Source: Escherichia phage dhabil. Taken from it: a DNA stretch of 64,000 bases. The DNA lies in sequence record MN850621.1, one strand, 5' to 3'. Both the position numbers and the translations under genes were made by a program. Of the stretch, positions 4,423-57,514 are shown in pieces (position 1 is the first letter of the stretch; each line of letters opens with the position of its first letter). The notes beneath the pieces are model-generated. The model was not told where the DNA came from, made no database searches, and was given only the letters and a program-made list of their open reading frames with translations.

Positions 4423-4480
4423 TTCATTTCCTTTATAGACGAGTGATTGTCTTTTGTTTGTTGATGAATCATTATACTCC

Positions 4481-4503
4481 AAAAAAGGGACCGAAGTCCC
4501 TTT
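4481..4503 (-). terminator. intrinsic terminator (TTCG loop) upstream of gene 43 leader
   Basis: Minus GGGAC-TTCG-GTCCC followed by TTTTTT; then GGAGTATAAT and gene 43 SD. Confidence 0.6.
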
Positions 4504-4505
4504 GC

Positions 4506-4721
4506 TTAAATTTCTATTGTCAAACGTTTAATAGTCGGATTGCCATCTTCGCCTTTAGTTCTAATCATAGCCTGGAAGACTTGCTGACCTGGATGTAGTA
4601 ACTTATGGAGGTCCTTTTGAAATTCTATTTGGAGCTCTTCGGAAAGGTCAAAAACAGTTTGAGTTGGTGAAAGCCCGTACACCTCTTTAAGACGTTCACA
4701 CATTTCAATTTCAAGAATCAT
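4506..4721 (-). CDS. hypothetical small protein between regA and gene 43
   Basis: In-frame ATG (MILEIEM...) just after regA stop; 71 aa; start uncertain. Confidence 0.3.
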   Translation of the reverse strand: MILEIEMCERLKEVYGLSPTQTVFDLSEELQIEFQKDLHKLLHPGQQVFQAMIRTKGEDGNPTIKRLTIEI

Positions 4722-5664: not shown

Positions 5665-6614
5665 TGGAGCTCCAGAGCAAGTTGGATAAAAAGATAAGTC
5701 AGGTGAATTTCTGGGTTAGCAGCAATACCATGGTATTGGTTATTTTCACCGACGATTTCATACATTCTAACAATGCTTGGCCCAGGCAATTTACCATAGA
5801 GTTCGTTAGCCAATGTCATAATAAAGTTGGTATAATCATTGACATGACGTGGAGCTAATGCACGGAGTTCTTTAAAGTTTTTATCTTTCAGTGCAGCCAC
5901 TACTTCATCAATAGGCGAATTGGTATTCATTACAATACTCAAAATGCCTGTATCGATTTTACCACTTGAGGAATAACGGTCTAGTTGGTTAACTGTTTTA
6001 CGGAAGTCAGGGAAGTTTTGTTTAACTAAAGCAGCAATAACTTTAAGGTCTTCGACTTCGATATTTTCGTTTTTACAAATTGCTACTGCACGATGAATCA
6101 TTTCTTTCATCATGGTTGTTTGGTCAGCTGGAGTGGCTTCACCAAATTTAATTACGCGACAACGAGATTGAAGTGGACCGATAATACCGTCAATATTGTT
6201 TGCTGTAATAATTACAGAACAGTTTGAGGAATAGGCCTCTAAGAATGAACGAAGGTGGCGTTGAGCTTCAGCAACACCAGCACGGTCGAATTCGTCAATA
6301 ACAATTACCTTACGTTTACCTTCGATAGATTTAGAAGATGCAAAACGAGTAAGTTCGTTACGAACGAAATCAATACGACAGTCGGAACCGTTAACAAACA
6401 ACATGTCTGAATTTGTATCAGCACACAATGCTTTAGCCACGGTAGTTTTACCTGTGCCTGGTGAAGCAGAGACTAGGATAATGTTAGGGATTAGGCCCTT
6501 ATTAACAATGGCTTGGAGAGTTTCTTTATCATGAGCAGGCAGAATACATTCAGATAAAGTACCTGGACGATATTTCTGTTCCCACATGAATTCATTATTA
6601 TTTACTGTAAGCAT
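5655..6614 (-). CDS. 44: clamp loader ATPase gp44
   Basis: 319 aa; Walker A SPGTGKTT, Walker B VIVIDEFD, SRC motif (QSRCRV); T4 gp44-like. Confidence 0.95.
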   Translation of the reverse strand: MLTVNNNEFMWEQKYRPGTLSECILPAHDKETLQAIVNKGLIPNIILVSASPGTGKTTVAKALCADTNSDMLFVNGSDCRIDFVRNELTRFASSKSIEGKRKVIVIDEFDRAGVAEAQRHLRSFLEAYSSNCSVIITANNIDGIIGPLQSRCRVIKFGEATPADQTTMMKEMIHRAVAICKNENIEVEDLKVIAALVKQNFPDFRKTVNQLDRYSSSGKIDTGILSIVMNTNSPIDEVVAALKDKNFKELRALAPRHVNDYTNFIMTLANELYGKLPGPSIVRMYEIVGENNQYHGIAANPEIHLTYLFIQLALELQWL

Positions 6615-6651
6615 ATTAATTTCCTCAGGTTTGTTTTTACATTATACTCCA

Positions 6652-6670
6652 AGGGAGGAATTTCCTCCCT
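6652..6670 (-). other. perfect 20-bp palindrome between gene 45 and gene 44
   Basis: AGGGAGGAAATTTCCTCCCT, followed on minus strand by GGAGTATAAT. Confidence 0.45.
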
Positions 6671-6675
6671 ATGCT

Positions 6676-11221: not shown

Positions 11222-11267
11222 AATATCCTCGCTTAATTAAACCTATTTTATCATCCATTCAGAAAGC

Positions 11268-11290
11268 AAAAAAGGAGCCTAAGCTCCTTT
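11268..11290 (-). terminator. intrinsic terminator upstream of gene 47
   Basis: Minus GGAGC-TTAG-GCTCC followed by TTTTTT. Confidence 0.55.
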
Positions 11291-13967: not shown

Positions 13968-14005
13968 GTGGGACCATTATACTCTGGTCCCAAGAGTTTG
14001 TAAAC
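13968..14005 (-). promoter_or_regulatory. early promoter within inverted repeat
   Basis: Minus GTTTAC, 18 nt, TATAAT; -10 sits inside palindrome GGGACCA…TGGTCCC. Confidence 0.6.
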
Positions 14006-16529: not shown

Positions 16530-17030
16530 AATAAACCCTTACCATTATTAGATAAGGGTATTTATTAAACGTTATAAAATGAGCGATGCAACCTTTTAAA
16601 TTGACGAATCATCTTTTTGGTAGGACGGGTATATAATCCTACACAAGTGGCCATAAACTGGTCAGTAGGACTTCCTTTGATAAGAAGTTTCCAGACCTTG
16701 TCACCATTTAACTTTTCGGTATAGACTAATTTAGTTTTCATCAGAAGACCTCGTCAGAAAAGCGGAGTTGCGCTTCAAGCCAATGGATATAATCGGCTGC
16801 AGCTTTAATCAAATCAGACTCTAGGTCAGGTAAAGAACCCGAATCCGATAACTCGTAAAGCGAATGTTCAATCAGACGGCCTTTATGACGGCCAATTTCA
16901 ATTTTGGTACTCATATCCAAACTCCATATCGATTAAATCATTGTTTGAAGGTTCATTATACTCTATTTCGGAATCGTTGTAAACCGGTTCCTCTGGCTCG
17001 GTAGTTTCCCACCGAGCGACATACCACGGC

Positions 17031-23364: not shown

Positions 23365-23386
23365 AAAAAAGGACCCCGAAGGGTCC
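23365..23386 (-). terminator. intrinsic terminator (TTCG loop)
   Basis: Minus GGACCC-TTCG-GGGTCC followed by TTTTTT, then promoter cassette. Confidence 0.6.
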
Positions 23387-23581
23387 TAAATTGCGCTCCA
23401 ATAATTATGGAAGCGGATATTATTGATAGCCCAGTTAATACACCGTCTTATCTGCTTAGACGTAGGCTTGCATACGTACTTGAAATTGATTCGTCTACCG
23501 GTTTCTCTACAAACTACTTCAAGATACCAACGACAGGTTTTATGAGGTCTTCCATATGACAGGAAAACCTTGATTTCTTCT

Positions 23582-26857: not shown

Positions 26858-26887
26858 GAAAAAAGGTCCCACCGAAGTGAGACCTTT
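26858..26887 (-). terminator. intrinsic terminator (TTCG loop)
   Basis: Minus GGTCTCAC-TTCG-GTGGGACC followed by TTTTT, then promoter cassette. Confidence 0.6.
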
Positions 26888-29707: not shown

Positions 29708-30247
29708 TTAATATACCGCCTCAAACATCTTTTTAGATTTTAGGTAATTGGCCTTTTCTAGAACTTCGGAAGCATATTTACTGCCTGCTTTGACATTCCA
29801 GCCCGCATTATAAGAAGCAATCGCTTTTCTCAGGTCACCTTTGTGAACATCAATCCAATAAGACAGCTCAATGTAGGCCCAAGAGGCACTGTTCTGTCGT
29901 TTTTGGACCATGCGAATTATTTCTTTGTCTGACATCTTCCAACCTACCTGTTGAACACGACTTCTTAACGTAGGCAAGTAATTTTGGAACATGCCATAAG
30001 CATGGTGCTTATCTTTATTTAAACCTTGATTAATTCCAGCAGATGATTCCTGCCATAATAATCCGGCCATTATATATCCTAATCCTTTTTGATTAGGGTT
30101 TTCTTTGAACTTTCCCGACTTTTGGTATTGTTCACCGAAAGCATACGCATAATGTAAATTATCGAGTTGTTCATTACTGAAAGTAGGCTCTACGCTATAG
30201 GCAGACATACTAACTGTCAATAGTAAAGTGGCTAATACTTTTTTCAT
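29708..30247 (-). CDS. secreted lytic transglycosylase-like protein (SLT domain)
   Basis: Signal peptide; WQESS…AYGMFQ…SYNAG fits the SLT catalytic E-S…G-L-M-Q…A-Y-N-A-G pattern. Confidence 0.5.
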   Translation of the reverse strand: MKKVLATLLLTVSMSAYSVEPTFSNEQLDNLHYAYAFGEQYQKSGKFKENPNQKGLGYIMAGLLWQESSAGINQGLNKDKHHAYGMFQNYLPTLRSRVQQVGWKMSDKEIIRMVQKRQNSASWAYIELSYWIDVHKGDLRKAIASYNAGWNVKAGSKYASEVLEKANYLKSKKMFEAVY

Positions 30248-30259
30248 GAGACCTCATTA

Positions 30260-30718
30260 TTAAAGATAGATTACTTTCGTGCTGGTTTTACCTTCTAAAC
30301 GTTTAGAATTAACAAATGCCATACGACATTTTAATGAATATCCTTTATCAGGATGTTTACGATCTACGGTCATACCCAACCATAAGGTTTTATCGGTAAT
30401 CTCGAGACGCAGTGGACGATACACTTTACCTGGGACAATTTCAGATTCTATGTCAGGAAGAGGCTCCTGGATTAAAAATTCATGGATTTCTTTAACATGA
30501 TTGTGGAGCTTCTTGAACAAAGAGAAAACATATTTTTCGTCAATTTCACGTTGGATAGCACGGTCCAACAAGTGATTAGAGTACTTAATAAAGAAAGCTG
30601 GGACACCGCTCTTAATGGCGGCTTTTTTGATGGACGCGTTAAGTTCACGAAATTCGGTTTCGAACTGACGACGTAATTTGTTGCGGCGGATGAATACTTC
30701 TGAATTAATTTCTGACAT
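30260..30718 (-). CDS. regB: endoribonuclease RegB
   Basis: 152 aa; EVFIRRNKLRRQFETEFR…HLLDRAIQREIDE closely resembles T4 RegB. Confidence 0.92.
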   Translation of the reverse strand: MSEINSEVFIRRNKLRRQFETEFRELNASIKKAAIKSGVPAFFIKYSNHLLDRAIQREIDEKYVFSLFKKLHNHVKEIHEFLIQEPLPDIESEIVPGKVYRPLRLEITDKTLWLGMTVDRKHPDKGYSLKCRMAFVNSKRLEGKTSTKVIYL

Positions 30719-35696: not shown

Positions 35697-35757
35697 TCCA
35701 TTTCACTCTGTTGTTTTGATAGGTCTATAGTATCACACCTATAGACCTTGTACACTG
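35697..35757 (-). promoter_or_regulatory. early promoter cassette (variant)
   Basis: Core with internal inverted repeat GGTCTATAG…CTATAGACC; -35 region GTGTAC. Confidence 0.5.
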
Positions 35758-39941: not shown

Positions 39942-39959
39942 GGGAGACCGAAGTCTCCC
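39942..39959 (-). terminator. hairpin (TTCG loop), terminator-like
   Basis: Minus GGGAGAC-TTCG-GTCTCCC, weak T tract, then strong SD. Confidence 0.45.
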
Positions 39960-40589: not shown

Positions 40590-40633
40590 TAATCCATGAG
40601 GACATTATACCCTGTCCTCTGAGGGTTGTAAAC
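40590..40633 (-). promoter_or_regulatory. early sigma70-type promoter
   Basis: Minus GTTTAC, 18 nt, TATAAT; -10 inside palindrome GGACA…TGTCC. Confidence 0.6.
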
Positions 40634-41035: not shown

Positions 41036-41092
41036 TATGCTCTCCTCAAATTACGGGCTCATAATATCTCAATCATGAGCCCGTGTAAACAA

Positions 41093-41420: not shown

Positions 41421-41454
41421 AACTTTGTGAAATTATTTTTAGTTTAAACCCCCT

Positions 41455-41477
41455 AAAAGGAGACCGAAGTCTCCTTT
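41455..41477 (-). terminator. intrinsic terminator (TTCG loop) after IPIII-like gene
   Basis: Minus GGAGAC-TTCG-GTCTCC followed by TTTT. Confidence 0.6.
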
Positions 41478-41479
41478 CA

Positions 41480-42338: not shown

Positions 42339-42414
42339 TGGTCGAGACAGTAGGGATCGAACCTACGACCCAGGACTTAGAAGGTCCTTGCTCTTCCTTC
42401 TGAGCTATGCCTCG
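42339..42414 (-). tRNA. tRNA-Arg (anticodon TCT)
   Basis: Hand-folded cloverleaf: acceptor CGAGGCA/TGTCTCG, D-arm GCTC/GAGC, anticodon stem AGGAC/GTCCT with loop CTTCTAA, T-arm GTAGG-TTCGATC-CCTAC, CCA encoded. Confidence 0.8.
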
Positions 42415-42418
42415 TATT

Positions 42419-42493
42419 TGGCGGACATGCATGGATTCGAACCATGGACCAATTGATTAACAGTCAACTGCTCTACCACTGAGCTACACATCC
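42419..42493 (-). tRNA. tRNA-Asn (anticodon GTT)
   Basis: Hand-folded: D-arm GCTC-AGTGGTA-GAGC, anticodon loop CTGTTAA, T-arm CATGG-TTCGAAT-CCATG, CCA encoded; acceptor stem has two G-T pairs. Confidence 0.7.
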
Positions 42494-42497
42494 AAAT

Positions 42498-42571
42498 TGG
42501 TGGCCCTGGGTGGAATCGAACCACCATCCAGCGATTATGAGTCGCTCGCTTGACCGTCCAGCTACAGGGCC
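42498..42571 (-). tRNA. tRNA with CAT anticodon (Met, or Ile if lysidine-modified)
   Basis: Hand-folded: acceptor GGCCCTG/CAGGGCC, anticodon stem AGCGA/TCGCT with loop CTCATAA, T-arm GGTGG-TTCGATT-CCACC, CCA encoded. Confidence 0.75.
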
Positions 42572-57480: not shown

Positions 57481-57500
57481 AAAGGGCCGCAAGGCCCTTT
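57481..57500 (+). terminator. hairpin (GCAA loop) after gene 8
   Basis: GGGCC-GCAA-GGCCC followed by TTT; late promoter of gene 9 follows. Confidence 0.5.
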
Positions 57501-57506
57501 CGGGGG

Positions 57507-57514
57507 TATAAATA
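57507..57514 (+). promoter_or_regulatory. late promoter (TATAAATA) for gene 9
   Basis: Plus-strand TATAAATA about 27 nt upstream of gene 9 ATG, after a hairpin. Confidence 0.6.

Follow-up and report, generated by a model that had tools for sequence, protein, structure and literature searches.

The minus strand of the window, as we call the whole 64,000-nucleotide stretch of Escherichia phage dhabil analyzed here (record MN850621.1), carries genes 46, 45.2, rpbA, 45, 44, 62, regA, ORF43.1, and 43, in that order, with gene names drawn from the annotation of phage JS98 and from the list of open reading frames (ORFs) of the window (Table 1). This 46-to-43 block reads as the classic T4 DNA-replication gene cluster. 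Over the stretch of ~3.1 kb around the junctions considered below, identity is 99.5% to Escherichia phage CLB_P2 and ~98% to JS98 and JS10, and by such comparison the window belongs to a JS98-like T4-type coliphage of the genus Dhakavirus (Tevenvirinae). Genes annotated as motA and asiA are present in JS98 (~98% identity over this cluster); they fall outside the window. An Rfam search of the window returned three tRNAs only, with no family over the hairpins.

Table 1. Genes, stem-loops, and promoter-like elements of the dhabil window
Feature	Position	Strand	Details
Gene 45	7374-6676	minus	JS98 annotation/ORF list
Stem-loop AGGGAGGA-aau-UCCUCCCU	6652..6670	minus	Directly 3' of the gene 45 stop codon
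GGAGTATAATG, copy 2	6640..6650	minus	TATAAT 6646-6641; 26 nt upstream of gene 44 ATG
Gene 44 ATG	6614-6612	minus	SD GAGG 6626-6623
Gene 44	6614-5655	minus	JS98 annotation/ORF list
regA	5085-4723	minus	JS98 annotation/ORF list
ORF43.1 homologue, small	4721-4506	minus	Pfam PF25760
Stem-loop AAAGGGAC-UUCG-GUCCCUUU	4484..4503	minus	3' end of regA/ORF43.1 unit
GGAGTATAATG, copy 1	4470..4480	minus	TATAAT 4476-4471; GGAG at -16 to -13
Operator-like hairpin AGAC-AAUCACUC-GUCU	4437..4452	minus	4-bp stem, 8-nt loop
Gene 43 SD AAGGA	4433-4429	minus	ATG 4422-4420
Gene 43 (DNA polymerase)	4422-1711	minus	JS98 annotation/ORF list
Middle junction before gene 47	11245..11290	minus	Hairpin AAAGGAGC-uuag-GCUCCUUU 11290-11271, MotA box TGCTTTC 11268-11262, 11 bp, TAAAAT 11250-11245
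Stem-loop AGGACCC-UUCG-GGGUCCU	23370..23387	minus	U5 tail; then early promoter TTTACC 23344-23339, 16 bp, TATTAT 23322-23317
Stem-loop AAAGGUCUCAC-UUCG-GUGGGACCUUU	26862..26887	minus	U-tail; then early promoter TTTACA 26848-26843, 16 bp, TACTAT 26826-26821
regB, GGAG-specific endoribonuclease gene	30260..30718	minus	PF10715, E 2e-69; JS98 annotation
Stem-loop GGGAGAC-UUCG-GUCUCCC	39942..39959	minus	Straight into SD GGAGGAG and ATG (39918); no promoter after
Stem-loop UGAAAGGAGAC-UUCG-GUCUCCUUUUA	41454..41479	minus	Then early promoter TTTACA 41419-41414, 16 bp, TACTAT 41397-41392
Late junction	57481..57514	plus	Hairpin AAAGGGCC-gcaa-GGCCCUUU 57481-57500, then TATAAATA 57507-57514

Two junctions of this cluster resemble each other closely. 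Before gene 43, the minus strand reads TAA-gc-AAAGGGAC-ttcg-GTCCCTTT-ttt-GGAGTATAATG, and before gene 44 it reads TAA-agcat-AGGGAGGA-aat-TCCTCCCT-t-GGAGTATAATG, with AGCA shared 5' of the stem. An initial annotation had described a hairpin followed by the same 11-mer at both places, and direct reads of the two sites bear this out. The window has just two exact copies of the 11-mer; allowing one mismatch yields five matches (1.34 expected), and the 9-mer GAGTATAAT is present in five copies against 0.84 expected, a count reached in none of 100 shuffles. All five copies of the 9-mer are intergenic, 5' of genes, and on the minus strand, which is the coding strand of the early genes, and the three other than the gene 43 and 44 sites are TTTACA-17-TATAAT early promoters. 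Hence, the succession of a hairpin and GGAGTATAATG is confirmed as a real, non-random pattern. A small ORF with GGAG as its SD and the ATG of GGAG-TATA-ATG as its start, which would have 22 codons at the gene 43 site and read ATG-TAA at the gene 44 site, was considered and set aside, since this ATG is missing in T4 and most relatives.

The stem-loop before gene 43 folds at -11.5 kcal/mol (z of -3.2 vs shuffles) and is followed by a tail of six U's, counting those at the stem end together with the ttt at 4483-4481, so that its design is that of a predicted canonical intrinsic terminator. With its C(UUCG)G loop, it would end the regA and ORF43.1 transcripts while abutting the -10 region of the promoter discussed below. 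The corresponding hairpins of 14 lineages show 100% pairing, with double changes at five of seven pairs, a pairing percentage that is partly circular, as these hairpins were picked with a hairpin finder. The weight rests instead on the presence of a strong hairpin in every lineage despite sequence change, the stems including GGGAC/GTCCC, GGAGCC/GGCTCC, AGGGC/GCCCT, GGGCC/GGCCC, and GGGGC/GCCCC.

Directly 3' of this hairpin, the TATAAT of the first 11-mer copy is most readily taken as the -10 of a counterpart of the T4 middle promoter P43, a promoter that T4 switches on through the action of MotA and AsiA on sigma-70 RNA polymerase. The predicted start, at about 4466-4464, would give an RNA that begins ~44 nt before the gene 43 AUG. 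Among sequences upstream of gene 43 from 34 related contigs, compared as 17 lineage sequences, TA(T/A)AAT is invariant (17/17), with gp43 N-terminal identity falling as low as 55-57%, and the gene 43 site is thus predicted to be a conserved promoter. In T4, Table 1 of Hinton 2010 (PMC2988021) lists a MotA-dependent P43 start at 29933, citing Guild 1988 and Hsu & Karam 1990. Read in the T4 record, this position lies 5 nt after the matching TATAAT, and the six neighboring middle promoters of the same table all start 7 nt after their -10. Neither 11-mer site is a copy of the early promoter cassette: a -35 element, GTTTAC(A/T) at 16-18 bp upstream of the -10, is absent at both sites, where the hairpin fills the space, and the gene 43 site matches a MotA-dependent middle promoter of T4.

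Where a MotA box would lie at this promoter is less obvious. Scored against (a/t)(a/t)(a/t)TGCTTtA at 12±1 bp upstream of the -10, with the spacer counted from the 7-mer aligned to TGCTTTA up to TATAAT, the loop 7-mer of the window, GACTTCG, has the CTT core, a 3/7 match, and a spacer of 15, outside 12±1. The geometry of T4 P43 is alike, with GGCTTCG and a spacer of 15. Across lineages, the box and the loop follow a complementary pattern. A hairpin abutting the -10 goes with (G/A)CTTCG in the loop 7-mer, at a spacer of 13 in most such lineages and of 15 in T4 and the window; a hairpin set 16-20 nt further upstream goes with a separate box, TGCTAT or TACTTTA, at 11-12 bp from the -10. This pattern suggests that the DNA of the terminator tetraloop doubles as a weak MotA box, and the loop of the window would put its CTT core about where that box belongs. 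The T-run between the stem and GGAG varies from four to six among Dhakaviruses, such that the loop-to--10 spacing is not tightly held. Some context favors a loop box: an ACTT-centered MotA box is functional at T4 P46, on modified DNA, JS98 encodes MotA and AsiA, and canonical TGCTTTA-type middle promoters occur elsewhere in the window (e.g., before rpbA and gene 47). We also observed that GAGTAT, taken as an alternative -10, lies at a 12-bp spacer from the loop box in both T4 and the window, and that the listed T4 start fits either hexamer. The GGAG at -16 to -13 is kept in 10-13 of the 17 lineages, while those without it often have TGn instead; known promoter requirements leave this conservation without an explanation, a point to which we return.

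Between this promoter and gene 43, the leader contains a short hairpin (positions 4452-4437) that matches the design of the gp43 translational operator of T4 and RB69, in which an 8-nt loop, AAUAACUC, adjoins the SD (PMC3014915). Its loop, AAU(A/C/U)ACUC, recurs in relatives, and the stems covary. As a putative operator, it would be bound by the DNA polymerase, which would repress its own translation; the polymerase operator proposed for the gene 43 leader in the initial annotation is therefore present at the level of sequence.

The whole arrangement parallels the T4 regA-43 junction, TAAgcaaGGGGCttcgGCCCCttatttGGAGTATAAT followed by the operator, which is laid out as TAA-gca-AGGGGC-ttcg-GCCCCT-tattt-GGAGTATAAT, operator hairpin, and SD. 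The two share gene context and element order, a C(UUCG)G hairpin after AGCAA, the GGAGTATAAT block, 15 bp from the loop CTTCG to TATAAT, and an operator loop of the form AAU-N-ACUC next to the SD. They deviate in the loop core, which is ACTT in the window and GCTT at T4 P43; in the operator, where the window has AAUCACUC on a 4-bp stem and T4 has AAUAACUC; and in the presence, in the window, of ORF43.1 between regA and the hairpin. Further, the T4 start is a mapped one and that of the window a predicted one. By analogy with T4, we infer termination, initiation, and MotA dependence at this junction in the dhabil phage. A literature search found no genome-wide T4 start-site or 3'-end data covering the gene 43 and 44 sites.

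Beyond the replication cluster, the window holds more hairpins of the kind that Tuerk and colleagues are said to have described in 1988, namely, C(UUCG)G tetraloop hairpins in T4 intercistronic regions. Like those of T4, they have a GC stem and a C-G pair closing the UUCG, and they lie between genes as predicted terminators. Four further TTCG hairpins had been listed in the initial annotation, and all four exist, a few bases from where it had placed them. They had been said to lie usually just upstream of a promoter. This is so for those at 23387, 26887, and 41479 (three of the four have a TTTAC(A/C)-16-TA..AT promoter within 25-35 nt downstream), but not for that at 39959, which runs into an SD and ATG. 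The common design proposed for them, an A-run, GC stem, TTCG, and stem, likewise describes the hairpins at 4503, 26887, and 41479 and fails for those at 23387 and 39959. We regard them as probable ordinary T4-type terminators, several of which would sit in terminator/early-promoter/SD cassettes of the published PeSL type. Durand 2006 (PMC1702504) mentions UUCG-loop terminators in T4, in whose stems GGAG is often found.

The PeSL (promoter-early stem-loop), as defined in work on plastic early regions, where it is repeated, begins with a stem-loop that acts as terminator or attenuator; an early promoter of the form TTTACW-N17-TAYWAT comes next, and then the SD and start codon (Arbiol 2010, PMC2839356; Comeau 2014, PMC4122927). 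The same papers mention PeSL-like sequences around JS98 gene 43, describe stems that overlap the -10, and report PmSL, a middle-promoter version, for phage nt-1. Both PeSL forms have likenesses in the window: early junctions in which a hairpin is followed by a GTTTAC-type -35 (hairpins at 17017, 23387, 26887, and 41479) and stems overlapping the -10 (at 14004, 40632, and 41089). The gene 43 and 44 sites differ from the strict PeSL in lying within the conserved replication core and in lacking a -35, and the gene 43 site resembles the PmSL of phage nt-1. With the middle junction before gene 47 and the late junction on the plus strand (Table 1), hairpin-then-promoter junctions in the window cover all three T4 promoter classes (early, middle, and late). 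Thus, the idea of a reusable module is sound insofar as such junctions recur across promoter classes, but a hairpin lies upstream of only ~5 of ~15 early promoters, and most early promoters have, instead, an inverted repeat inside the promoter. The terminator-promoter module is common, yet the early region as a whole is not built from it.

The gene 44 junction is a different matter. The hairpin itself folds well (-13.0 kcal/mol, z of -3.6 vs shuffles). Its 3' flank, UUGGAGUAUAAU, has only two U's, which does not amount to the U-tract of a canonical intrinsic terminator, and a terminator scan of the window did not list the site. In the 45-44 spacer gathered from 33 related loci, the gene 45 stop is followed at once by a GC-rich hairpin in nearly every one of these Tevenvirinae loci. 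The loop is UUCG in most of them, and the stems show double changes at seven of seven pairs. Dhakaviruses have lost the UUCG loop (AAU/AAAUU), which most relatives retain. The most likely role of such a hairpin is to attenuate read-through or to protect the gene 45 mRNA at its 3' end. The claim that both junctions combine a terminator with a promoter is supported for gene 43 only; at gene 44, there is no U-tract, the TATAAT is not conserved in related genera, and no T4 promoter is listed there.

What follows the gene 45 hairpin varies among lineages. Dhakaviruses have GGAGTATAATG, PEi20-like and CIP9-like phages GGAGTATTAAG, VR7/VR26-like phages GGAGTATTGAG or GGAGTACAAAG, and one further lineage GGAGTAATAAT; T4-like phages have TATAAT without GGAG, with the TAT lying within the stem and covarying (ATAGAGGGC/GCCCTCTAT), and the remaining lineages have neither the GGAG nor the TATAAT motif. 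GGAGUA is the sole block conserved after the hairpin in the Dhakavirus, VR7/VR26, PEi20, and CIP9 groups. A model with only the hairpin leaves two things unexplained, namely, why all 11 nt match the gene 43 site exactly and why GGAGTA is conserved in the three other groups. Two candidates at this site were rejected. First, MotA-box-like TGCTTTA/TGCTTAA sequences lie on the opposite strand just upstream of both hairpins (reading AAGCA on the minus strand), with no -10 after them. Second, in the minimum free energy fold, AAGCAUA (6675-6669) pairs with UAUGCUU at the gene 44 AUG; with a z of only -1.8 and no conservation in relatives, we attribute this pairing to chance.

One potential explanation for the shared 11-mer is that both copies are working promoters, with gene 44 transcripts starting at ~6635 through a -10-only element (GAG-TATAAT) or an unrecognized activator site in the hairpin. 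The enrichment of GAGTATAAT, whose other three copies lie in clear early promoters, is in line with this, as is the TATAAT found right after the gene 45 hairpin in T4-like phages too. However, the coding strand at the gene 44 site lacks a -35, a TGn, and anything like a MotA box, for which the best match is 2/7. The hexamers of the PEi20, CIP9, and VR7/VR26 groups (TATTAA, TATTGA, TACAAA, or TAATAA) lack the key -7 T, and the T4-like TAT belongs to the stem with which it covaries. Further, the Hinton 2010 table (PMC2988021) is empty of middle promoters between P43 and P45 (32626), and the T4 RNA-seq paper places genes 43, 45, and 44/62 (map units 35,662-27,197) downstream of Pe35.3 as highly MotA-dependent, which would put genes 45, 44, and 62 under upstream promoters. 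A conserved promoter at the gene 44 site is thus not supported by these comparisons, and we consider it rather unlikely that both copies serve as promoters. The gene 44 copy may have a lineage-specific role; in Dhakavirus, the 11-mer may serve as a weak start with a -10 only, as an element acting in the RNA, such as a RegB-type site, or as both.

Alternatively, the second copy may have no function of its own, its identity to the first having arisen by chance or by gene conversion or recombination between similar hairpin-bounded junctions, in the manner of PeSL shuffling. Such exchange would fit the PeSL-like sequences already noted around JS98 gene 43, the AGCA common to both sites 5' of the stem, and an ORF43.1 indel, one end of which coincides with the 5' edge of the gene 43 hairpin. 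Yet GGAGTA is kept in groups with ~80-90% gp44 identity and differing flanking intergenic bases, which speaks for constraint rather than a recent accident, and an exact 11-mer in two spacers of ~60 nt is very unlikely by chance. We therefore deem a functionless second copy improbable, and more so than a second promoter.

A third explanation places the action mainly in the RNA. RegB cuts single-stranded GG^AG before an A-rich tract, with the consensus GGAGRAYARAA and U tolerated at position 5, according to Durand 2006 (PMC1702504). Here, GGAGUAUAAUG would be a RegB/S1 cleavage site just 3' of a protective hairpin, such that cutting of read-through RNA would separate the gene 45 from the 44-62 mRNA and the regA from the 43 mRNA, the upstream RNA retaining its 3' hairpin and the downstream RNA gaining a new 5' end. 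This would be compatible with a -10 role of the same bases at gene 43. The window encodes regB (Table 1), the GGAG is unpaired in centroid folds, and gp43 synthesis in T4 is reportedly stimulated by RegB. The closest likeness is the RegB site in the T4 motB leader, GGAGUAUAAAA, as deduced from the text of Durand 2006 (PMC1702504) and then read in T4 DNA. Its first nine nucleotides are identical to GGAGUAUAA, a single-stranded GGAG followed by UAUAA; it, too, lies just 3' of a hairpin-forming repeat, and it shares 10 of 11 positions with the T4 gene 43 site. Cleavage would also supply a reason, which promoter requirements do not, for the retention of GGAG at the gene 43 site in most lineages and of GGAGUA at the gene 44 site across four groups. 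Against it, positions 10 and 11 of the window sites are U and G, in contrast to the AA of the motB site and the favored A's, and relatives also miss positions 8 and 11. Moreover, 42 of 68 intergenic GGAGs in T4 are RegB-resistant, by the count of Durand 2006 (PMC1702504), and GGAG is entirely absent from the gene 44 site of T4. On balance, an action mainly in RNA is conceivable though not probable, if somewhat less doubtful than a pair of promoters.

These roles could also be combined. In a dual-use model, which we advance only tentatively and which we think as doubtful as the paired promoters, GGAGTATAAT(G) would serve in DNA as the -10 region of the gene 43 middle promoter and in read-through RNA as a RegB/S1 site 3' of a protective hairpin. 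If so, early polycistronic RNA would be cut in two, the upstream message being capped by a hairpin and the downstream one beginning with a promoter-like 5' end. Such cutting could underlie the reported RegB stimulation of gp43 synthesis, and it would account for the retention of GGAGUA 3' of the gene 45 hairpin in several genera that have no surviving -10.

Weighing these alternatives, we consider it likely that the junctions are standard intercistronic control elements of a T4-type replication cluster, that is, a terminator, P43 counterpart, and polymerase operator before gene 43, a hairpin before gene 44, and T4-type terminators at the other TTCG loops. In this respect, the pattern rediscovers known T4 biology, as PeSL cassettes and UUCG-loop terminators are already published, and our findings leave the current view of T4-type gene control unchallenged. 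Their value lies mainly in annotation. Phage therapy work draws on Dhakavirus genomes, whose database entries lack regulatory features, and the correspondence with T4 would allow the terminator, P43, and polymerase operator of the gene 43 junction to be annotated with confidence. Beyond this, the gene 44 copy, together with the occurrence of GGAG beside hairpins across genera, offers a small hypothesis, namely, that the mRNAs of the replication genes may be processed by RegB.

The hairpin ahead of gene 43 lies beside a gene that is variably present among the Dhakaviruses. Specifically, we identified a homologue of ORF43.1 (71 aa, PF25760) between regA and the hairpin in both the window and JS98, whereas on another Dhakavirus contig (related-phage locus L085, about 920-960) the open reading frame is missing and the regA stop codon adjoins AAGCAAAGGGAC, which places the boundary of the ORF43.1 indel at the hairpin module's 5' edge. 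On its 3' side, the hairpin is followed by a T-run whose length ranges between 4 and 6 T in Dhakaviruses that are otherwise almost identical (the window compared with related-phage loci L082-L096), thus shifting the spacing from hairpin to -10 between 13 and 15 bp.

Further into the gene 43 leader, a hairpin resembling the gp43 operator carries the loop AAUCACUC in the window, as opposed to AAUAACUC in T4 and RB69, and the corresponding loops of relatives read AAU(A/C/U)ACUC. Compared across these sequences, loop position 4 shows natural variation. The gp43 operator loop is reportedly the one used in the original SELEX experiment.

In the gene 44 leader, AAGCAUA directly 5' of the gene 45 hairpin pairs with UAUGCUU over the gene 44 start codon in the minimum free energy fold; this pairing was not significant (z -1.8) and is not kept in relatives. 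Rfam matches in the window comprised only three tandem tRNA genes, which correspond to a cluster of tRNAs for Arg, Asn and Met in the JS98 annotation.

Features of the window, with predicted folds for the promoter cassettes
Feature	Position	Strand	Predicted fold
ORF43.1 homologue	4506-4721	minus	
T-run 3' of gene 43 hairpin	4478-4486	minus	
Operator-like hairpin	4437-4452	minus	
AAGCAUA	6669-6675	minus	
UAUGCUU	6609-6616	minus	
tRNA genes	42342-42571	minus	
Inverted repeats at early-promoter -10	13969-13992, 40598-40619, 41053-41084, 35721-35748	minus	
Spacer/SD early promoters (-35)	30774, 21943, 32696, 15125	minus	-13 to -21 kcal/mol, z -3 to -7.6
Spacer/SD early promoter (-35)	41419	minus	-9.6 kcal/mol, z -1.7 (weak)
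Spacer/SD early promoter (-35)	26848	minus	-7.8 kcal/mol, z -1.0 (weak)

At some early promoters, inverted repeats also flank the -10 or extend over it, one example being TGGGACCA-gagtataa-TGGTCCCA. The window promoter at 14004 resembles the T4 motB promoter (T4 locus L118, 680-720) nearly base for base, including the GGGACC/GGTCCC repeat, and stems overlapping the -10 have already been described for the promoter-early stem-loops (PeSLs) of RB49 and phi1 (PMC2839356, PMC4122927).

At six early promoters, the gene downstream has an SD region complementary to the spacer that directly follows TTTACA, as in the pairing of TCTCCTGTAG with CTACAGGAGA, TCTCCAGTAG with CTACTGGAGG and CCTCTCCTCACGTGT with ACACATGAGGAGA. 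A comparison of two of these cassettes showed a single compensatory change, from T:A to A:T. In RNA reading through such a cassette from upstream, the pairing would hide the SD together with its GGAG; in RNA initiated at the cassette's own promoter, both would stay exposed. This putative hiding of the SD would be similar to the logic known for the T4 genes e, soc, 49 and I-TevI.
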